DNA of 64,000 nucleotides from the NCBI RefSeq assembly GCF_003018115.1, contig NZ_CP027457.1; one strand, written 5' to 3'. This stretch comes from Escherichia coli (GTDB lineage Bacteria; Pseudomonadota; Gammaproteobacteria; Enterobacterales; Enterobacteriaceae). Below, piece by piece: positions 4,639 through 17,423 of the stretch. Both the position numbers and the translations under genes were made by a program. Within the stretch, counting starts at the first letter, position 1. Every line of letters begins with the position of its first letter. Under the pieces are notes generated by a model. It saw only the letters and a list, made by a program, of their open reading frames with translations. It did not search any database and was not told the DNA's origin.

Positions 4639-5187
4639 TTATTGATACTGAACCTTGAAGGTCGCATCCGCATTAGCTGCGCCAGGGGTTGCGACACCGG
4701 TTGCATAATAACGCGCCTGGAACGGAATGGTGTTAGTACCGTTATTCAGGGTTGTTTGCTCACTGAATGTCGCACCATCCAGCGTCAGCGCAGCACCCGT
4801 TCTGTCCAGGATCTGCACACCAACGTTTGTTGCGCTACCCGCAGCTGAACTCTGCAGAGCCAGAACGTTGGTATGACCCGCATCAATCGCCGTACCTAAA
4901 AAGGCAACTGCGGCTTTAGATGCAACATTGGTATCGCAATCATTCAGCTGAATGTTAAAACCGACAGCAGAACTGGTTGCTCCTTCCTGTGCCAGCGATG
5001 CGGTACGAACCTGTCCTAACTGAACGGTTTGATCAACAGAGCCTGCATCAACTGCGCAAGCGGCGTTAACAACTTCCCCTTTAAAGTGAACGGTCCCACC
5101 ATTAACCGTCGTGGCAGCGGCCAGAGCCGCTGTAGAACTGAGGGACAGAGCCGACAGAACAACGATTGCCAGAGTTTTAATTTTCAT
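4639..5187 (-). CDS. fimA: Type 1 fimbriae major subunit FimA
   Basis: Track ORF 4639..5244; start [23 protein letters not shown] at 5187 gives a 182-aa major pilin. Confidence 0.92.
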
Positions 5188-10640: not shown

Positions 10641-10704
10641 CGCTTCAGGGCCCCAGTAAAGGGGCCCTGCTATCAATTTGTCATTTCAATTACGCGAAAT
10701 TTAT

Positions 10705-11685
10705 ATGAACGCAATAATATCGCCTGATTATTACTATGTTCTTACCGTTGCTGGTCAGTCTAATGCCATGGCGTATGGCGAAGGACTGCCATTACCGGAC
10801 AGGGAAGATGCGCCTCATCCAAGAATTAAACAATTAGCGAGATTTGCGCATACGCATCCCGGAGGCCCGTCATGTCACTTTAACGACATTATTCCACTGA
10901 CTCACTGCCCACACGATGTTCAGGATATGCAGAGTTATCACCATCCTCTGGCAACGAATCATCAAACACAGTACGGCACCGTTGGCCAGGCACTGCATAT
11001 TGCACGGAAATTACTGCCCTTTATTCCTGATAACGCAGGGGTTCTCATCGTTCCATGTTGCCGTGGCGGATCGGCTTTTACCGCGGGCAGCGAGGGGACA
11101 TATTCAGAACGGCACGGAGCCAGCCATGATGCTTGTCGTTGGGGAACGGATACTCCGCTGTACCAGGATTTAGTCAGCAGAACGCGAGCCGCACTGGCAA
11201 AAAATCCGCAGAACAAATTCCTCGGCGTATGCTGGATGCAAGGCGAATTTGACTTAATGACCAGTGACTACGCGTCACACCCTCAACACTTTAATCATAT
11301 GGTTGAAGCCTTTCGTAGGGATCTAAAACAATACCATTCTCAGCTGAATAATATTACTGACGCGCCGTGGTTTTGCGGCGATACCACCTGGTACTGGAAA
11401 GAAAATTTCCCTCATGCGTATGAAGCTATTTATGGCAATTATCAAAATAATGTTTTAGCCAATATTATTTTCGTCGACTTCCAGCAACAAGGTGAAAGAG
11501 GACTGACGAACGCGCCTGATGAAGATCCGGACGATTTAAGCACGGGATATTACGGTTCAGCGTACCGGTCACCGGAGAACTGGACGACGGCACTGCGAAG
11601 CAGTCATTTCAGCGCGGCAGCCCGTCGGGGGATTATTTCTGACAAGTTTGTAGAAGCAATTTTGCAGTTTTGGCGCGAAAGGTGA
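10705..11685 (+). CDS. nanS: 9-O-acetyl-N-acetylneuraminate esterase NanS (SGNH hydrolase)
   Basis: Start MNAIISPDYYYVLTVAGQSNAMAYG, 326 aa; GQSN block typical of SGNH esterases. Confidence 0.88.
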   Translation: MNAIISPDYYYVLTVAGQSNAMAYGEGLPLPDREDAPHPRIKQLARFAHTHPGGPSCHFNDIIPLTHCPHDVQDMQSYHHPLATNHQTQYGTVGQALHIARKLLPFIPDNAGVLIVPCCRGGSAFTAGSEGTYSERHGASHDACRWGTDTPLYQDLVSRTRAALAKNPQNKFLGVCWMQGEFDLMTSDYASHPQHFNHMVEAFRRDLKQYHSQLNNITDAPWFCGDTTWYWKENFPHAYEAIYGNYQNNVLANIIFVDFQQQGERGLTNAPDEDPDDLSTGYYGSAYRSPENWTTALRSSHFSAAARRGIISDKFVEAILQFWRER

Positions 11686-11839
11686 GCGTTCATTAATTTG
11701 ATTTATTCGCATCCATCAGCGCTTTTAACTCCTCCGGCGTAAACGGTGGTTTGCGTCGGTGCAACATCGCATGGCAATTAGGGCACACAGGCAGCAAAAA
11801 AACAAATGAGATCAAAGTAATATATCTTCACTTGCAGGC

Positions 11840-12769
11840 TTGAACAGCAGAAAATTTGCGAGCATGATCGCAATTATTTCACTGCCAGGGATATCAATGG
11901 CTTCCAGTAAATCGCTACAGCAGGCAATTGCCAACATAAAAATCTGGCACAAGGGTGAACAGCGCGCGCCGCATAAGCCATTGTTATTGCTATACGTATT
12001 AGCGGGATACCTGAATGGACATCCACGCCTTTTCGATTATGGCTCGGAAATCTACGAACCTCTGCACAGTTTACTGGAACGTTTTGGGCCACAGCGTTCA
12101 CAGTACCGACCTGATATGCCGTTCTGGCGATTACAAGGCGACGGATTCTGGCAATTACACAATGCCGAGCTTTGCTCAACAGCAGGGAGCAGCCGACAAC
12201 CGCCAGTGAAGGAACTGAACGAATACCACGTTGCAGGCGGTTTCGATGAACAGCACTACGCCCTGGTAACCGGCAATAAAAAACTCATTAATACTCTGGC
12301 ACAACAGATACTCGAAGCGCACTTCACCGAGAGTATTCAGGAAGAAATCGCTGACGAGTTGGGTTTTGACCTCCAGCAAATCCGTAAGCAACGCGACCCG
12401 TTATTTCGCAGACTTGTATTACGCGCCTATAACTACCAGTGCGCGATATGTGGCTTTAATATGCGCCACGATGACACTACCGTCGCGCTGGAAGCGGCAC
12501 ATATAAAATGGAAACAGCACGGCGGTCTTTGTGAAATTCCTAATGGCCTGGCGCTTTGCGCAATTCACCATAAAGCCTTTGATAAAGGATCGATTGGCCT
12601 GGACGAAAATATGCGGGTACTGGTATCAGATGCGGTAAACGGCGGAGGGATCGTTGAGAGATTATTCTGGGATTTTGACGGGAAAACTATTGCGTTACCA
12701 CAGGTGCGTAAAAATTACCCTTTTGAGGGGTTTGTAGAGTGGCATCGGAAAGAGGTTTTTAGGGGGTGA
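11840..12769 (+). CDS. HNH-motif endonuclease with an uncharacterised N-terminal domain (possible modification-dependent restriction-type nuclease)
   Basis: 309-aa ORF; C-terminal YQCAICGF...AAHIKW...LCAIHHKAFDKG is a Cys/His HNH-type motif. An alternative start MASSKSLQQ at 11897 has an AGGGA RBS. Family assignment of the N-terminal domain is not possible by eye. Confidence 0.7.
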   Translation: MNSRKFASMIAIISLPGISMASSKSLQQAIANIKIWHKGEQRAPHKPLLLLYVLAGYLNGHPRLFDYGSEIYEPLHSLLERFGPQRSQYRPDMPFWRLQGDGFWQLHNAELCSTAGSSRQPPVKELNEYHVAGGFDEQHYALVTGNKKLINTLAQQILEAHFTESIQEEIADELGFDLQQIRKQRDPLFRRLVLRAYNYQCAICGFNMRHDDTTVALEAAHIKWKQHGGLCEIPNGLALCAIHHKAFDKGSIGLDENMRVLVSDAVNGGGIVERLFWDFDGKTIALPQVRKNYPFEGFVEWHRKEVFRG

Positions 12770-12810
12770 GATTGATAACTATCGCAGTATGTTCAATATT
12801 GCTGACATAA

Positions 12811-12993
12811 TCAGTGCAGGATCTTGCCGCTAGTTTACAACTCGCCTTCGATAGCGGCGCAAAACGAGTTCTGTTGCCGATATCCTCGGCTATGGATATT
12901 CCAACAGTTCCGGCAGAGTTGTTTACCAAGTTTCAGGTAAGTTTTTTCTCAGAACCGGTTGATGCGGTTTATAAGGCGCTGGATGTGAATTAA
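12811..12993 (+). pseudogene. Remnant encoding the C-terminal ~60 aa of a Lon-like protease domain (BrxL/Lon-type)
   Basis: Frame opens just after a TAA at 12808-12810 and reads ...SGAKRVLLPISSAMDIPTVPAELFTKFQVSFFSEPVDAVYKALDVN*, which resembles the extreme C-terminus of Lon proteases (...GIKTVLIP...IP...V...EVL..AL). No upstream body of the gene is present. Confidence 0.5.
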
Positions 12994-13326
12994 CACATTC
13001 CTCAGCTTATTTACAAAAGGATTATTCCCATTTGATATAATATCAGTGCCAATTTACTTTTTTCAATGAAATATATCTCGGCTAAATAACAATAAAACTT
13101 ATCGCTAATGGATTAAATAAACAATTTTCTAATTCATTTCACCACCTTTGATATAGAAATTGATGGTGTTGTCGTTGCCATTGCTTATGGTGATGATAAA
13201 ATCCACGTTTCTGGATCGTTGCGTAGAAAATCATCACTGCCTTGATATTTTGATGCGATATAATCATACCGTTCCGTAGTACCAATTTCAATTTCAGGCT
13301 AAACCCCAACATTAAAAAAAATTAGA

Positions 13327-13375
13327 GTTATTCACTGATTATATTATATTATCAATAATATAATCAGTGAATAAC
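13327..13375 (-). terminator. Perfect 21-bp inverted repeat (7-nt loop) downstream of the 682-aa ORF, followed on the minus strand by a T8 run; probable intrinsic terminator
   Basis: GTTATTCACTGATTATATTAT / ATAATATAATCAGTGAATAAC arms read directly; T-run lies about 6 nt past the stem on the minus strand. Confidence 0.55.
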
Positions 13376-13397
13376 ATGGACTATATAATAAATTGCT

Positions 13398-15446
13398 CTA
13401 ATCATTTCCCTTACGAATATATGGGCCAAAAGCCCAAGAATCATAATAAGGGTGATGGACTAATTTTTCATTAAATCGAACACTATAAGTTAATTTTTTT
13501 ATATTTTTACGTACAGCATTAATACTGGGCAAAGAGGAAAGATAATCTATAAACTTATCGATAGTGATTTCCCCTTCGCAACACTCAAACCCATCAATGA
13601 TATTTTTCGCCATTTTTCCATTTTCATTTGTTTGATATATCACTCCAGGTATTCGTTGAAAAAAACTAGATAATGCATATTTGTCCGCTACATATGTATC
13701 ATCCACATGATATTTCCCACCGAGCATAGTTGTAGTAACAATAAGCTTATACACACCTTTGGGTTGCCATGTTGATGGTAGTTCGAATTCTTTAATGATC
13801 ACATCAAGATGATTAAGATAATGTTCAGAAATTCGATTTATTTGTTGAAAATAAGAACGCATAAATTTATTATTATGATCATGTATTAATGAGCTATCTC
13901 CAACGATGTTACACACTTGCTGATAGTACTTACCATAATATATTGGTTGACCATTTGATTTTAGTTCTGTAAAAATCAAAAAATCATCCAGGAGAATCAC
14001 GCAATCGCACTGATAATTAGCATGAGCATCAATTGAAGAAGCTTTAATCCCCGCATCACGAACTTGTTTTATAAATTGTTGCTCATGAAATCGCCCTTTA
14101 CTTGCTTGAGAAATTTTTTTGGAACCAAATAATGACATTAGAGAGCGAGTCACTGAGCTATTTGCTATTAATGCAGGCATTAAGCATAAACCGTCCATAC
14201 AGGGAATAAATGGGCAATCATTAAGATCATGTGATTTTGAATTGAAGGTAAAATAATCTATCAGTTTTTTTGCTGCATCCGCTGCAATCCCCTTACGTTG
14301 AAAGAATGATAACCAACTCTCACGGCTTTTTATGATCAGCCAGCGATCCAACTGTAGGGGTATAGGTTTTGTCGATGAAAATCTTTTGCTCATTTCTTCT
14401 TTAGATAACTCGACTAAACATTGATAAGCGTGCACCCAATTAAATAATGATATATTCCCATATTCTTCATGAAGGTCATCAGGAGACATATTTTCCAACT
14501 CGCTTAGATGAAATGAGCTAAAAACGCCATCAGAATTTAAGTAAGATGGCATATGATCCTTTACCCAACTATTTAGATGAAAATGTTTGTTACTAAATTC
14601 ATGAACTTCGCTATATAGATGTGACGCTCTCATCATTAGTCTATTTCTTGCAATCTCATAATCTCGGTATAAACAAAAACTATCAACCTCAAGAGAGTAA
14701 ATGTTATTATCCAATTTTGTAAATACTGCACTACTTAGTCTGAAAAAGTCTCTTACTCTGCTTAATGAGTCAAAAACATTCCACTCATTAAGGTACCCTC
14801 CCATTGAAAGCAAGGTTTGTTTATTCACACAAGAAGTTAGTTTCAATGGCCCATGAGTCCGTAAATAAGAAAATATTCTTCCGGTGTAATTGGCTACCTC
14901 ATCAAATGCCCTATCGATAACTCGAAAATATTCGATATCAGGTTCAGCATGAATATTAATATTTTCAGAAACGATAAATAATGGAAAAATCCTCTTCATT
15001 TTTTTAGGATCATTGACCACAACCAAGGATGATAATGATGATAAAAACATCTCACAAAACATGATGAGATTAAGTATTAATGCATGTGATTTTTTTGTAT
15101 TTTTACGCCAAATACCAGCACATTTTGTAGCCGCAAAGAAAGAATTATTTATATCATGCATAATTTTACATTGACTCTCGAACTCAGAGATTAGTTCAAT
15201 GTTATCAGGAAATGAGTTTACTAGCTCATTAATACATTTTTTGAATGTATTGTTATACTCAACTTCAGTCTGAACTGAAAATCTATTATAATAGATGGAA
15301 GATATTCTCAGCACATCCAAGGCGATATCTATACTAATATCATCTCTTTTTATGTACTCACAAAAAAAAGAACAAAACTGTTTCGGGTCGTTAGCAAGAT
15401 TACTAATTCTAGTAGTATCATAAACTTTTTCCATTTTTCCATACAT
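13398..15446 (-). CDS. Orphan AT-rich 682-aa protein of unknown function; candidate defence or nuclease protein with a possible PD-(D/E)XK-like motif
   Basis: Uninterrupted 2 kb ORF with RBS AGGA before the ATG; composition visibly far more AT-rich than flanking core genes; no Walker A, HNH or other motif I recognise except E~455 ... D~481 ... E494-L-K496 (QCDCVILLDDFLIFTELK). Confidence 0.75.
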   Translation of the reverse strand: MYGKMEKVYDTTRISNLANDPKQFCSFFCEYIKRDDISIDIALDVLRISSIYYNRFSVQTEVEYNNTFKKCINELVNSFPDNIELISEFESQCKIMHDINNSFFAATKCAGIWRKNTKKSHALILNLIMFCEMFLSSLSSLVVVNDPKKMKRIFPLFIVSENINIHAEPDIEYFRVIDRAFDEVANYTGRIFSYLRTHGPLKLTSCVNKQTLLSMGGYLNEWNVFDSLSRVRDFFRLSSAVFTKLDNNIYSLEVDSFCLYRDYEIARNRLMMRASHLYSEVHEFSNKHFHLNSWVKDHMPSYLNSDGVFSSFHLSELENMSPDDLHEEYGNISLFNWVHAYQCLVELSKEEMSKRFSSTKPIPLQLDRWLIIKSRESWLSFFQRKGIAADAAKKLIDYFTFNSKSHDLNDCPFIPCMDGLCLMPALIANSSVTRSLMSLFGSKKISQASKGRFHEQQFIKQVRDAGIKASSIDAHANYQCDCVILLDDFLIFTELKSNGQPIYYGKYYQQVCNIVGDSSLIHDHNNKFMRSYFQQINRISEHYLNHLDVIIKEFELPSTWQPKGVYKLIVTTTMLGGKYHVDDTYVADKYALSSFFQRIPGVIYQTNENGKMAKNIIDGFECCEGEITIDKFIDYLSSLPSINAVRKNIKKLTYSVRFNEKLVHHPYYDSWAFGPYIRKGND

Positions 15447-16123
15447 CCTATTGTCTAAATTACTATAAAACTAGCCACTTAACTAATAATTATAAATTTC
15501 ATCTTTTACACCTTGCATTTTTATAACCAATGAAATCTACAACAAGCAACTGATGGATAATCCGATATTGGTCGCATTTAATGGCATGGTAGCAAAGTTT
15601 TCATCACATACCTCCTTTGCACCAGAATAAACGCCAGAGACCTGAAATTGCGAGTACACTACAGAAATTGTACTGCCGGTCCCATCAGCATAAAACCATA
15701 GTTACACAGGTAATCATCATTATTCGCCAAGATAATAAATATTATTCGGTAGAATAGCGTTCTCAGGTGGTCAGTAAAATTGTCTTCAACAAGATGTCTG
15801 CGCATCTCGTCTGCTAGCCCTACATAACTGCTCTCGACCGAAACTATTTATTGAATGTTCACCAAGGTGGGCGTGGAGACAAAATGACGTCTTTTGATAT
15901 TAGCTACCTGAGCCACATGGTCAAAACGTTCAAGTAGCATAGCGAAACCACCCTGCCCACGTAATGTGGACGATGCAGCTTCCAGCCAGAGCAAACTTGG
16001 GACCATCGACTACAAAATGAAGAATACTGAACTGCTTTTCTGGCAGGCCTATATACTGCACGGATATGGGTGATTTCAGGCACAAAAAAAGCCGCCCTTA
16101 AGCGACTCGATTTGCATACGGTG

Positions 16124-16208
16124 TGGTGCCGAAGGCCGGACTCGAACCGGCACGTATTTCTACGGTTGATTTTGAATCAACTGCGTCTACCGATTTCGCC
16201 ACTTCGGC
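16124..16208 (-). tRNA. leuX: tRNA-Leu (leuX-type, CAA anticodon), 85 nt ending CCA
   Basis: Reverse complement reads GCCGAAGTGGCGAAATCGGTAGACGCAGTTGATTCAAAATCAACCGTAGAAATACGTGCCGGTTCGAGTCCGGCCTTCGGCACCA; type II tRNA with long variable arm. Confidence 0.9.
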
Positions 16209-16403
16209 ACTGAAGAGGTATGCGGAAAACGTTGTGGATTATACCTGTCGCACGCCACCATGCAAGCGCCAGCTTGCTCGCACCTCGCTAAGTGCTGAAA
16301 TTTTCAGCATTGCATACAGCGATGTGTAACCTTTGTCACACTCCAGGCACCCCGCCCTGCCATGCTCTACACTTCCCAGACAACACCAGAGAAGGACCAA
16401 AAA

Positions 16404-17423
16404 ATGTCGATGATAAAAAGCTATGCCGCAAAAGAAGCAGGCGGCGAACTGGAAGTTTATGAGTACGATCCCGGTGAACTGAAGCCACAAGATGTTGAAG
16501 TGCAGGTGGATTACTGCGGGATCTGCCATTCCGATCTGTCGATGATCGATAACGAATGGGGATTTTCACAATATCCGCTGGTTGCCGGGCATGAGGTGAT
16601 TGGTCGCGTGGTGGCGCTCGGGAGCGCCGCGCAGGATAAAGGTTTGCAGGTCGGTCAGCGTGTCGGGATTGGCTGGACGGCGCGTAGCTGCGGGCATTGC
16701 GATGCCTGTATTAGCGGTAATCAGATCAACTGTGAGCAAGGTGCGGTGCCGACGATTATGAATCGCGGCGGCTTTGCCGAGAAGTTGCGTGCGGACTGGC
16801 AATGGGTGATCCCACTGCCAGAAAATATTGATATCGAGTCCGCCGGGCCGCTGTTGTGCGGTGGTATCACGGTCTTCAAACCACTGTTAATGCACCATAT
16901 CACTGCCACCAGCCGCGTTGGGGTAATTGGTATTGGCGGGCTGGGGCATATCGCTATAAAACTTCTGCACGCAATGGGATGCGAGGTGACAGCCTTTAGT
17001 TCTAATCCGGCGAAAGAGCAGGAAGTACTGGCGATGGGTGCCGATAAAGTGGTGAATAGCCGCGATCCGCAGGCACTGAAAGCACTGGCGGGGCAGTTTG
17101 ATCTCATTATCAACACCGTCAACGTCAGCCTCGACTGGCAGCCTTATTTTGAAGCGCTGACGTACGGCGGTAATTTCCATACGGTCGGTGCAGTTCTCAC
17201 GCCGCTGTCTGTTCCGGCCTTTACGTTAATTGCGGGCGACCGCAGCATCTCTGGTTCTGCTACCGGCACGCCTTATGAGCTGCGAAAGCTGATGCGCTTT
17301 GCCGCCCGTAGCAAGGTTGCGCCGACCACCGAACTGTTCCCGATGTCGAAAATTAACGACGCCATCAAGCATGTGCGCGACGGTAAGGCGCGTTACCGCG
17401 TGGTTCTGAAAGCTGACTTCTGA
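16404..17423 (+). CDS. ahr: NADPH-dependent aldehyde reductase Ahr (YjgB), zinc-type alcohol dehydrogenase
   Basis: Start [21 protein letters not shown] at 16404; GHEVIG and CGICHSD zinc-ADH motifs; 339 aa. Confidence 0.9.

Follow-up and report, generated by a model that had tools for sequence, protein, structure and literature searches.

The 4,438-bp interval between nanS and the tRNA gene leuX in this Escherichia coli genome is, with a probability of roughly 80%, one compact occupancy state of the known nanS-leuX/ahr defence hotspot and not a self-mobile island. This reading draws on what we observed in the anatomy of the interval, its homologies, the alternative cargoes of other strains, the scars left inside it and a contrast in divergence along it. 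The stretch analysed, called the window below, comprises 64,000 nucleotides. It is an instance of hotspot #37 of Hochhauser, Millman & Sorek 2023, so that the locus-level phenomenon has already been published (PMC10121019). That hotspot is defined as nanS-yjgB with tRNA_Leu_CAA, nanS being the left boundary gene, and thus has the same flanking genes (yjgB/ahr) and tRNA as the window. It was occupied in 97.3% of genomes, held 31 defence system types, BREX and AbiE among them, had no detectable mobile element in 68% of cases, and was described as dedicated to defence; BREX was found at hotspots #1 and #37 only (PMC10121019). The compact cargo of the window, namely an SBD-HNH restriction gene, a BREX scar and a NERD-family nuclease gene, was not found in the main text of that study or, by a term search, in four of its supplementary files, and the NERD gene is absent from the defence systems catalogued in it (PMC10121019).

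To the left of the interval, nanS (sialate O-acetylesterase, 10678-11685, plus strand) is an intact ORF and the core flank of the hotspot, and aligned without gaps to K-12, 536, O111 and others at 97.4-100% identity. On the right stands leuX, tRNA-Leu(CAA), at 16124-16208 on the minus strand (ARAGORN; Rfam tRNA, 59.4 bits). The distance from 11685 to 16124 agrees with the about 4.4 kb given by the first-pass annotation, and its mention of AT-rich DNA is borne out by a GC content that drops to 29.5-38% over about 12.8-15.8 kb, where the flanks have 45-57%. That annotation had treated the whole interval as a variable islet. This holds for about 12779-16071; it does not hold for the left 1.1 kb or for the 52 bp beside leuX, which are semi-conserved and conserved flank, respectively. 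The latter (16072-16123, minus strand) carry the leuX terminator and conserved 3' flank, in which a terminator scan found a stem resembling a terminator at 16108-16089, followed by a T run. Homology with K-12, O111, VCSW7 and MY1-8 restarts at 16072 or 16077, and the 52 bp were kept in K-12, O111:H8, VCSW7 and MY1-8, the four comparison strains in which leuX adjoins the slot. Some or all of the left 1.1 kb was present in about 4,870-4,950 of 5,426 complete genomes. The left 1.1 kb is semi-conserved flank and not variable cargo. Together with the conservation on the leuX side, this narrows the truly variable slot to about 12779-16071.

Conservation at both edges would also be expected if the interval were ordinary core DNA, colinear in most E. 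coli, with K-12 as the exception. We consider this highly improbable. At least 80% of the interval was present in only 332-339 genomes (6% of the 5,426), the NERD gene with its upstream region in only about 334-343, and the same slot held at least five other cargo types. For 12779-16071, the genome counts and alternative cargoes refute the core-DNA explanation.

The left flank contains, next to nanS, two HNH restriction genes of the modification-dependent kind. The first survives as a 105-bp 3' remnant (11693-11797, minus strand), the last 35 codons of a 216-aa McrA-like HNH endonuclease gene, which matched residues 183-217 at 97% by tblastn and is annotated in RefSeq as a partial HNH endonuclease. 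In 13P477T and SMS-3-5 the gene is full-length, and its protein gave a weak PADLOC mREase_IV match (E 1e-5). The other 571 bp are deleted between two copies of ACAGGCAGCAAA, of which the junction copy lies at 11787-11798; a microhomology deletion destroyed the gene. The second is the HNH nuclease gene that the first-pass annotation had listed, and it is intact (11897-12769, plus strand; 290 aa from ATG 11897, with the ORF open from TTG 11840). Its product scored 430.7 bits against NCBIfam NF045808, 'phosphorothioated DNA-binding restriction endonuclease' (cutoff 180), its N-terminal half matched the ScoMcrA sulfur-binding domain structures 5zmo/5zmn/5zmm (E 5e-8), and both the HNH and mREase_IV models of PADLOC recognised it. 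At least 80% of this gene was found in 1,706 of the 5,426 complete genomes, and some part of it in 4,870. The enzyme is predicted to cleave incoming phosphorothioate-modified DNA. It has the SBD + HNH architecture of the EcoWI / ScoMcrA / SprMcrA family (PMC7461809; PDB 5zmo). EcoWI, which cuts GpsAAC N7/N6, is likewise an E. coli protein and has a mass of 33.4 kDa (PMC7461809), against a calculated 33.2 kDa here; the two are likened by architecture, NF045808 score and mass, and not by sequence identity.

Just past the SBD-HNH gene, a 35-bp junction (12779-12813) separates the end of left-flank homology, which in O111 and MY1-8 stops at 12778, from the start of brxL homology at 12814. The 3' end of brxL follows at 12814-12993 on the plus strand, with the last 59 codons and the stop (PADLOC BrxL; TIGR02653 positions 617-675 of 675, E 7e-24). 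This segment is the Lon-like C-terminal remnant reported before, and it is 93% identical to the intact same-locus brxL of MY1-8 and 84% identical to that of O111:H8 8B. A frameshifted 5' remnant of a PLD-like gene lies at 13092-13276 (plus strand; codons 1-62 of about 449), with tblastn matches in three frames and a combined E of 5e-15. Together with the McrA-like remnant it had been missed in the first listing of contents, every element of which was confirmed. In O111:H8 the PLD-like gene follows brxL, its full-length protein matches DrmC/ZacB-like PLD weakly, and nucleotide homology to L006 spans 12814-13276 at 84%. These homologies mark the brxL 3' end and the PLD-like 5' end as the scar that a type I BREX system left on its deletion. 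The deletion removed about 14-15 kb, from just past the SBD-HNH stop codon to about brxL codon 630. Of the type I set (brxA, brxB, brxC, pglX, pglZ, brxL) the window keeps only the brxL 3' end, and with only these 59 codons left BREX function is impossible.

Other strains fill the same slot differently. O111:H8 8B has the order SBD-HNH, PDC-S11, brxA-brxL, PLD-like gene, AbiE, integrase remnant, leuX; MY1-8 resembles it, with type I R-M remnants, and both strains, besides an intact type I BREX, hold further defence genes together with remnants of integrases. VCSW7 does not differ from the window up to 12994 and then continues with a Dcm-type methyltransferase, an NmeDI-like restriction enzyme (type II R-M) and an IS element where the window has the NERD gene. 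SMS-3-5 carries a gene cluster containing JetD, with a WYL-domain gene. In K-12, the 40.1-kb KpLE2 element with an intB pseudogene lies between leuX and nanS, and of SBD-HNH only a fragment of roughly 300 bp, from a diverged allele, is kept. The first-pass annotation had correctly mentioned this large K-12 element and had described the present cargo as different and much smaller, which is borne out by 4,438 bp against 40 kb. Its proposal of successive replacement of defence modules is supported both by these alternative cargoes and by the brxL and PLD-like leftovers, which as remains of a BREX occupant are direct evidence for such replacement.

The absence of an integrase, noted earlier by eye, was confirmed by tblastn with three P4-type queries (K-12 intB, the O111 remnant and Pectobacterium), which found nothing in the window at E<=1e-3. 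Nor did the 64-kb window contain a second copy of the leuX 3' end, when scanned with a 25-mer and a 16-mer at up to three mismatches, in agreement with the earlier statement that no such repeat could be found. The leuX 3' end is the attachment site of P4-type integrase islands, and in the window it is unoccupied. KpLE2 and PAI II of UPEC 536 adjoin the same tRNA gene as the islet. Both have an integrase beside leuX, whereas the islet has none, and a partial leuX repeat, absent from the islet, closes PAI II. In 536 no part of the islet falls within the integrase-delimited PAI II; the islet lies just past a 22-bp partial leuX repeat, TGGTCGAAGGCCGGACTCGAAC, which stands between it and the distal end of PAI II. 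This position argues that the islet is the flank of an attachment site and not an integrative element.

One could nevertheless regard the whole islet as the decayed stump of a single integrase-borne island, for example the O111:H8 or MY1-8 BREX island. After a single integration at leuX, deletions would have stripped that island of its integrase and most of its genes, and the NERD gene would be original cargo. Same-locus BREX islands indeed have integrase remnants beside leuX, the brxL and PLD-like scars persist in the window, and a relative of the NERD gene stands on a P4-integrase island in Pectobacterium. We judge this history unlikely. The NERD gene was in neither BREX island examined (O111:H8 8B, MY1-8), VCSW7 has another cargo and another breakpoint (12994 against 13276), and the islet of 536 is outside the att-delimited island. 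Divergence also speaks against it. In pairwise comparisons of the window with 536 and with 13P477T, identity was 97.4 and 98.2% in nanS, 96.7 and 97.4% in SBD-HNH, and 98.0 and 99.0% in the BrxL/PLD scar; in ahr and yjgR, compared with 13P477T only, it was 95.8% and 95.0%. The NERD gene, in contrast, was 99.6% identical to both strains and the 625 bp upstream of it 99.7%. A module at 99.6-99.7% beside a BREX scar that differs by 1-2% and flanks that differ by 2-5% must have had a different history from the scar. Since the flanks as a whole differ by 1-5%, the contrast points to recent horizontal spread of a 2.7-2.8-kb AT-rich NERD module. This module took the place of whatever had stretched from the PLD-like gene to the leuX terminator.

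In a compact hotspot state of this kind, cargo would turn over by deletion and by homologous recombination across conserved flanks, which are nanS/SBD-HNH to the left and leuX/ahr to the right, with no integrase of the islet's own. The leuX 3' end remains open to P4-type integrase islands, whose insertion takes place between leuX and the islet. We infer this recombination route from the way in which divergence varies in three pairwise comparisons, and not from a phylogeny.

The NERD gene was found in 334-359 of the 5,426 genomes. An identity of 99% or more was seen in 340 of them, whereas in the remaining 19 the match is confined to a stretch of roughly 100 bp at 80-90%; carriers include UTI89, 536, IHE3034, O145 strains, and avian and porcine isolates. 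The ORF of 682 aa lies at 13398-15446 on the minus strand. Alignments with homologues begin at M5 (15434), which is therefore the probable start and gives 678 aa, as in RefSeq. The ORF itself had been recognised before as an orphan, a label that did not stand: 361 cluster representatives were related to it at E<=1e-3 among 1.84 billion proteins, and its AFDB relatives carry the name 'NERD domain-containing protein'. The protein has an N-terminal region of about 440 aa that is all alpha, followed by a nuclease core at about 445-600 and, at the C-terminus, a small alpha/beta domain. Across 111 sequences with 14-55% identity, the core residues E455, D481, E494 and K496 showed no or almost no variation. 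The protein is a member of a broad and uncharacterised family of NERD/PD-(D/E)XK nucleases, about 650 aa in length. It had no significant match in Pfam, NCBIfam, PHROG or PADLOC, the sole PADLOC match being PDC-M29B at E 0.0023, and ten other family members matched no PADLOC family either. The N-terminal region had no recognisable homologue, and no S4 domain was detectable by sequence. Downstream, 23 nt past the stop codon, repeat search and terminator scan located a perfect 21-bp inverted repeat with a 7-nt loop and a T-rich tail (13328-13374, minus strand), a probable terminator, close to the left boundary of the recently spread module; segment 13277-13397 shows a 6-bp indel relative to 536 and 13P477T. 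Upstream, the 625-bp stretch (15447-16071) co-occurs with the gene in the same roughly 332-343 genomes and is unannotated in all; we found in it no ORF >59 aa, no Rfam match and no integrase similarity.

The NERD gene is probably one more anti-phage gene. The family has no conserved neighbour and occurs as single genes, mostly near known defence genes. Eleven family contexts were sampled, of which nine were informative and eight of these were defence or mobile settings: the leuX-nanS hotspot of the window; a P4-integrase island in Pectobacterium; a position adjoining a type I R-M system and a Cap4 nuclease; Tn7-like cargo near Gabija-type genes (OLD-like TOPRIM ATPase + UvrD helicase) and a WYL gene; a prophage end past the lysis genes, adjoining pPIWI_RE; a position adjoining an AbiJ-like gene (weak Pfam match); an island with Gabija-type, NERD-helicase and PLD-helicase genes; and a position adjoining CTD10/DUF2326. 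The ninth, in Izhakiella, was a lone NERD insertion between metabolic operons.

A role other than defence is possible, though we hold it the less probable: the gene could be a selfish or housekeeping nuclease, for example in DNA repair or as an addiction-module toxin, or a decaying, hitch-hiking passenger. It matches no known or candidate defence family, NERD domains are found in proteins with many roles, and the solitary Izhakiella insertion could be cited likewise, a context that we take as neutral on defence. Against this, about 334 E. coli genomes carry the ORF intact, with no more than 8-9 differences over its 2,049 bp, and the catalytic residues are invariant over a deep family. That family recurs near R-M systems, Gabija-type genes, Cap4, pPIWI_RE and AbiJ-like genes and at a prophage end, a typical accessory-gene position, and the gene itself sits in a hotspot reported as defence-dedicated (PMC10121019).

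Among the closest known systems for an anti-phage role is Upx, a single-protein PD-(D/E)XK anti-phage nuclease (PDB 9wuf; PMC13099982; bioRxiv 10.64898/2026.04.30.721860). ZwsA (Zowangsin) of P. aeruginosa is a stand-alone NERD-domain RNA endonuclease against RNA phages (bioRxiv 10.64898/2026.04.06.716636). Compared by description and not by sequence, ZwsA and the NERD protein of the window are alike in layout and core pattern: both are stand-alone and island-borne, with a helical N-terminus, a NERD core and a small C-terminal domain, and E535, D567, E580 and K582 of ZwsA correspond in pattern to E455, D481, E494 and K496. The D-to-E spacing is 13 residues in both, a spacing generic to NERD domains, and the residue numbering of ZwsA occurred in none of 150 family representatives examined.

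In summary, the NERD protein would act alone as an anti-phage effector nuclease, in which the Mg-dependent core (E455, D481, E494, K496) would cleave nucleic acid and the large helical N-terminal region, by conjecture, would sense or gate. At a hotspot that is already published, the new element is the NERD gene, a candidate for a defence nuclease of the single-protein type.

The gene order in the window was nanC, nanM, nanS, the variable interval, leuX, ahr and yjgR, in the reverse of the K-12 orientation. nanS (10678-11685, + strand) is the left boundary gene and ahr (yjgB; 16362-17423) the right boundary core gene, and leuX, which encodes tRNA-Leu(CAA), lies at 16124-16208 on the minus strand, with its terminator at 16089-16108. 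The interval between nanS and leuX (11686-16123) measured 4,438 bp; it was 100% identical in O169:H41 2014EL-1345-2 and in one more complete genome, and a third genome differed by a single base. The compact 4.4-kb islet described in the first-pass annotation, with an HNH nuclease gene, a Lon-like remnant, AT-rich DNA and a 682-aa ORF, was thus confirmed, with refinements. GC content was 45-53% across nanS and the HNH gene and 44-57% toward leuX and ahr, and the profile dipped to 29.5-38% at about 12.8-15.8 kb. The AT-richness therefore stood, but the non-coding DNA was not featureless, since 13092-13276 holds the remnant of a phospholipase D (PLD)-like gene. Local alignments placed the end of the conserved left flank at 12778-12785 and the start of the conserved right flank at 16072. 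In several carriers, RefSeq splits nanS into a truncated pseudogene and a very small 'hypothetical protein' (comparison loci L001 5020-5586, L002 2242-2586, L003 19242-19586 and L023 499-843). The window nanS ORF is intact, 100% identical to that of L001, and aligns without gaps with K-12 nanS; judged by these alignments, the pseudogene calls look like an annotation artefact and not true decay.

Neither an integrase nor a direct repeat of the leuX 3' end had been noticed by eye, and both absences held under computational search. With the last 25 nt and 16 nt of leuX as queries and up to 3 mismatches allowed, the single copy in the 64-kb window was leuX itself, and three P4-type integrases used as tblastn queries found no match in the same 64 kb. 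An ORF scan agreed with this: the 677 bp between the 682-aa ORF (13398-15446, minus strand; the NERD gene below) and leuX, at 15447-16123, contained no ORF longer than 59 aa and no Rfam match. The islet therefore has neither mark of a P4-type integrase island, that is, an integrase beside a tRNA gene and a distal repeat of the tRNA 3' end. In UPEC 536, the same islet is bordered at its right end by TGGTCGAAGGCCGGACTCGAAC, a partial repeat of leuX lying on the leuX side of the islet, beyond which comes the distal end of PAI II. The 536 locus thus identifies the islet as the chromosomal flank of the attachment site, and integrase-borne islands insert between it and leuX.

This locus corresponds to hotspot #37 in the supplementary table of Hochhauser et al. 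(2023), given there as nanS ... yjgB with tRNA_Leu_CAA. Hotspot #37 is occupied in 97.3% of genomes, carries a defence system in 97.4% of the occupied cases, houses 31 system types and has no detectable mobile element in 68% of cases, and BREX is confined to hotspots #1 and #37 (Hochhauser et al., 2023). The window has every feature of that description: bounds formed by nanS and yjgB/ahr, the tRNA-Leu(CAA) gene, variable cargo, and at least one defence system. The earlier interpretation, a hotspot at which defence modules have successively replaced one another, therefore agrees with published work; our comparisons support it, and at the level of the locus it is not new. The islet is ordinary for hotspot #37.

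The HNH nuclease gene of the islet (11897-12769, ORF open from 11840) scored above the cutoff of NF045808, 'phosphorothioated DNA-binding restriction endonuclease' (430.7 bits, cutoff 180; residues 25-308 on profile positions 2-284 of 284). Its residues 23-161 matched structures of the ScoMcrA sulfur-binding domain (5zmo), residues 156-308 matched PADLOC HNH models, and a CxxC...H...N...H pattern was readable in the translation. By family and domain criteria, it is a predicted phosphorothioate-dependent restriction endonuclease, here termed SBD-HNH. The characterised E. coli enzyme of this kind, EcoWI, forms a 33.4-kDa dimer; it cleaves GpsAAC/GpsTTC at N7/N6 and prevents transformation with dnd+ plasmids (PMC7461809). 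The calculated mass of the window protein is 33.2 kDa, against the 33.4 kDa reported for EcoWI; that the two are the same enzyme is a lead, not a result. Some part of the SBD-HNH gene was present in 4,870 of 5,426 genomes and at least 80% of it in 1,706, and this semi-conserved gene may explain part of the near-universal "defence occupancy" of hotspot #37. In the yjhR-nanS gap of K-12 (L018 43269-43562) we found an unannotated piece of a diverged allele, about 300 bp long and sharing 90% identity with the gene's 5' part; BL21, Nissle 1917 and O55:H7 have a matching fragment that carries a restriction endonuclease annotation, and all three fall in the 80-90% identity band, which comprised 2,097 genomes. 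To the left of SBD-HNH, a second HNH endonuclease gene has left a 105-bp remnant (11693-11797, minus strand), identified by RefSeq and tblastn. This gene is intact in 13P477T and SMS-3-5, where it encodes 216 aa with a weak likeness to type IV methyl-directed enzymes; in the window, 571 bp are deleted between two copies of ACAGGCAGCAAA, and 536, O111:H8, VCSW7 and MY1-8 have the same deletion allele.

The Lon-like C-terminal remnant was likewise real and proved to be the end of BrxL: 12814-12993 encodes its last 59 residues (profile positions 617-675 of 675). It is followed at 13092-13276 by the PLD-like remnant, which is frameshifted and covers the first 62 codons of a gene that comes after brxL in O111:H8 8B. 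From the type I BREX gene set (brxA, brxB, brxC, pglX, pglZ, brxL), the window keeps the BrxL end only, and the full set occupies the same locus in O111:H8 8B and MY1-8. Alignment of K-12 and other E. coli leuX regions revealed cargo that differs between conserved flanks, with at least six different cargoes in the slot among the compared strains. O111:H8 8B carries the PDC-S11 candidate, brxA, an IS-split brxB, brxC, pglX, pglZ, brxL, the PLD-like gene, an IS remnant, AbiEi/AbiEii and an integrase remnant. MY1-8, whose brxL end is 93% identical to the window remnant, has PDC-S11, complete BREX, IS1414, ParB/Srx, type I R-M remnants and an integrase N-terminal remnant. VCSW7 is the same as the window up to 12994 and continues with a cytosine methyltransferase, an NmeDI-like restriction enzyme and a transposase pseudogene, and SMS-3-5 holds PDC-S11, a JetD-containing four-gene cluster, a WYL gene, an integrase pseudogene and a CP4-57-like module. 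K-12, described in the first-pass annotation as bearing a larger and different cargo, indeed has the 40.1-kb KpLE2 with intB beside leuX, and UPEC 536 has the window's islet followed by the PAI II distal end.

The strains with BREX or the JetD cluster carry, right after SBD-HNH, a 332-aa gene (L007 14717-15713, L005 21764-22762, L023 2452-3450) that is annotated as a hypothetical or membrane protein; it matched PADLOC PDC-S11 at E 9e-113, with a weak NucS-like N-terminus, and is absent from the window. On the far side of the nanM pseudogene, SMS-3-5 (L005 1-19883) contains a type II Zorya system (zorA2, zorB2, zorE), and in place of nanC and the fim side it has very large helicase, methyltransferase and STY4851-family genes. 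In some strains, then, the variable defence region reaches past the nanS boundary.

To the right of the BREX scar lies the NERD gene, which had been called an orphan. The 682-aa ORF gave no Pfam, NCBIfam, PHROG or PDB sequence match, and its close relatives were found in E. coli (99-100%), Salmonella (75%) and Izhakiella, Xenorhabdus, Pectobacterium and Pantoea (41-56%). An exhaustive profile search then removed the orphan label, recovering 361 cluster representatives, mostly of 600-720 aa and matching over their full length, and the family ranges over Enterobacteriaceae, Bacillales, Lactobacillales, Legionella, Agrobacterium and Planctomycetes. Since homologues align from M5, the RefSeq start at 15434, giving 678 aa, is likelier. 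In an alignment of 111 members (14-55% identity), P412, G451, D481, E494 and K496 were invariant and D407, D410, E455, Q535 and D588 nearly so, with E455 kept in at least 90%; E455, D481, E494 and K496 form the E...D...(D/E)xK catalytic pattern of the NERD / PD-(D/E)XK superfamily. Pfam NERD (PF08378) did not match the E. coli protein itself; among the 111 members it had 12 matches at E<=0.001 and 27 at E<=0.1, and the Card1 and Mrr nuclease families gave weaker matches among them. Membership therefore rests on transitive homology and on the fold. Structure prediction from 7 close homologues reached a pLDDT of 53, and with 111 sequences the AlphaFold model had a pLDDT of 92.7 and a pTM of 0.92. 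The model is all-alpha to about residue 440, followed by an alpha/beta nuclease core of the restriction-endonuclease-like fold at about 445-600 and by a small C-terminal alpha/beta domain. Full-length structural relatives in AFDB (TM 0.7-0.96), named "NERD domain-containing protein", came from Salmonella, Bacillus, Paenibacillus, Listeria, Streptococcus, Legionella, Agrobacterium and others. An S4-like C-terminal domain, hinted at by the secondary-structure pattern, was not borne out by sequence, since no family member matched S4. A literature search found no mention of the RefSeq protein accessions.

A repeat homologue search with the 111-sequence profile returned the same close relatives only and no Pseudomonas protein, and a genome-contig search from a shallow alignment gave two loci, one of them an E. 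coli-like contig in a Lachnospiraceae MAG. This contig (L019, SFGN01000178.1, 4,180 bp) matches the E. coli NERD gene at 99% identity and was deposited under 'Lachnospiraceae bacterium', probably through a binning error. Within the gene, 100 bp (14235-14334) had unannotated counterparts, at 84% identity, on a few chromosomes and on a dozen E. coli plasmids that are large and mostly conjugative, such as NZ_CP010234.1 (81228-81325). What is matched there may be part of a diverged relative of the NERD gene; apart from it, the module was absent from the plasmids in PLSDB.

Two described nucleases were compared with the NERD protein. The top Foldseek match in the PDB was Upx (E 5.7e-6, TM 0.33), a single-protein PD-(D/E)XK defence nuclease (PMC13099982) that is reported to be activated by phage terminase (bioRxiv 10.64898/2026.04.30.721860). 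The two proteins are alike in general plan. However, Upx is a three-domain protein of 1,272 aa in which two nuclease domains are joined to a C-terminal core, whereas the NERD protein (678/682 aa) shows a single recognisable nuclease core, at about 445-600, with a further domain behind it, and the 111-member profile did not retrieve 9wuf (Upx) from all PDB sequences at E<=1. We rejected Upx membership because of the size, the domain count and the missing sequence signal. ZwsA (Zowangsin) is a stand-alone NERD RNA endonuclease against RNA phages, with the architecture VHS-DUF647-NERD-S4 (bioRxiv 10.64898/2026.04.06.716636). By description, its helical N-terminus, NERD core and small C-terminal domain could match the NERD protein. 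The D-13-ExK spacing is common to both, in a comparison by residue spacing alone, and is generic to NERD domains; none of 150 family representatives carries the ZwsA residue numbering.

We sampled 11 genomic contexts of the family, of which nine were informative and two lay on contigs that were too short. No conserved partner was found across them. Besides the leuX hotspot itself, family members occurred in a Pectobacterium P4-integrase island with Vsr, as a lone insertion between enterobactin genes and a sugar operon in Izhakiella, next to a type I R-M system and a Cap4 nuclease, and in Tn7-like cargo with an AlbA_2/SLFN gene, Gabija-type genes (OLD-like TOPRIM ATPase and UvrD helicase) and a WYL regulator. 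Others lay at a prophage end after the lysis genes and adjoining pPIWI_RE, beside an AbiJ-like gene (weak Pfam match), in an island with a NERD-UvrD helicase, Gabija-type genes and two PLD-helicases, and beside CTD10/DUF2326 genes. PADLOC assigned the E. coli protein and ten diverse relatives to no family beyond weak matches to the nuclease core, the only match of the E. coli protein being PDC-M29B (E 0.0023). A defence role is thus likely, though unproven.

The distribution of the islet was then surveyed in 5,426 genomes. Some part of the interval was present in 4,951 of them, and the widely shared portion was its left end. At least 80% of the interval occurred in 332 only (6%), so that the possibility raised in the first-pass annotation, a stretch colinear with conserved core in most E. 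coli, would apply to the left end at most. The NERD gene gave any match in 359 genomes and a match of at least 80% in 334, and the 677 bp upstream (15447-16123) were found in 343. Carriers of the module include UTI89, UM146, IHE3034, 536, O145, ETEC, and avian and porcine isolates. Identity to 536 and 13P477T, respectively, was 97.7% and 98.5% for nanC-nanM, 97.4% and 98.2% for nanS, 96.7% and 97.4% for the HNH remnant with SBD-HNH, and 98.0% and 99.0% for the BrxL/PLD scar. The NERD gene reached 99.6% against both and the 625 bp upstream 99.7% against both. On the other side, ahr and yjgR could be compared with 13P477T only (95.8% and 95.0%), both being absent from the 536 locus compared. Since the non-coding upstream DNA is conserved like the gene, selection at the protein level does not explain this contrast, and the module (13398-16071) appears to have recently spread among lineages. 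With no recombinase at hand, homologous recombination through the flanks would be the most economical route of transfer; we infer it from three pairwise comparisons. Just 3' of the NERD stop, at about 13327-13375, lies a 21-bp perfect inverted repeat with a 7-nt loop and a T-rich tail, and the segment containing it (13277-13397) has a 6-bp indel in 536 and 13P477T. Placed near the left edge of the module, the repeat may be a recombination boundary as well as a terminator. The 625-bp upstream stretch (15447-16071) has a GC content of 44-48%, above that of the gene; it accompanies the gene at 99.7% identity in approximately 332-343 genomes and is unannotated in every one. It contained no ORF longer than 59 aa, no Rfam family, no integrase remnant and no remnant of the 395-aa neighbour gene of Pectobacterium, and no diverged annotated copy was found in E. 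coli; a long leader, a regulator site and the relic of a gene are possible readings of it.

In summary, the locus itself is of little significance, nanS-leuX-ahr being already in print as the E. coli defence hotspot with the greatest diversity, mostly free of mobile elements, and the window is a clean minimal example of it with readable scars. The sole part with discovery potential is the NERD gene, a new candidate in the known class of single-protein nuclease defence genes. A bolder reading, somewhat less likely than not at a probability of roughly 0.4, is that this 678/682-aa gene founds a widespread family of single-protein immune nucleases. In it, infection would be sensed by the novel all-alpha region (about 440 aa), which would then license the NERD core, possibly acting on RNA as reported for ZwsA, and the 2.7-kb module would spread without a mobility gene, solely by recombination via the conserved flanks of the leuX hotspot. 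With 2 kb, clear catalytic residues and a presence in UTI89, 536 and IHE3034, the gene is a cheap candidate single-gene defence system. Moreover, the 99.6-99.7% identity of the module against a flank divergence of 1-5% offers a testable handle on integrase-free cargo entry, a question left open by the hotspot paper, and its apparent recent spread gives a way into studying how E. coli exchanges cargo without an integrase.
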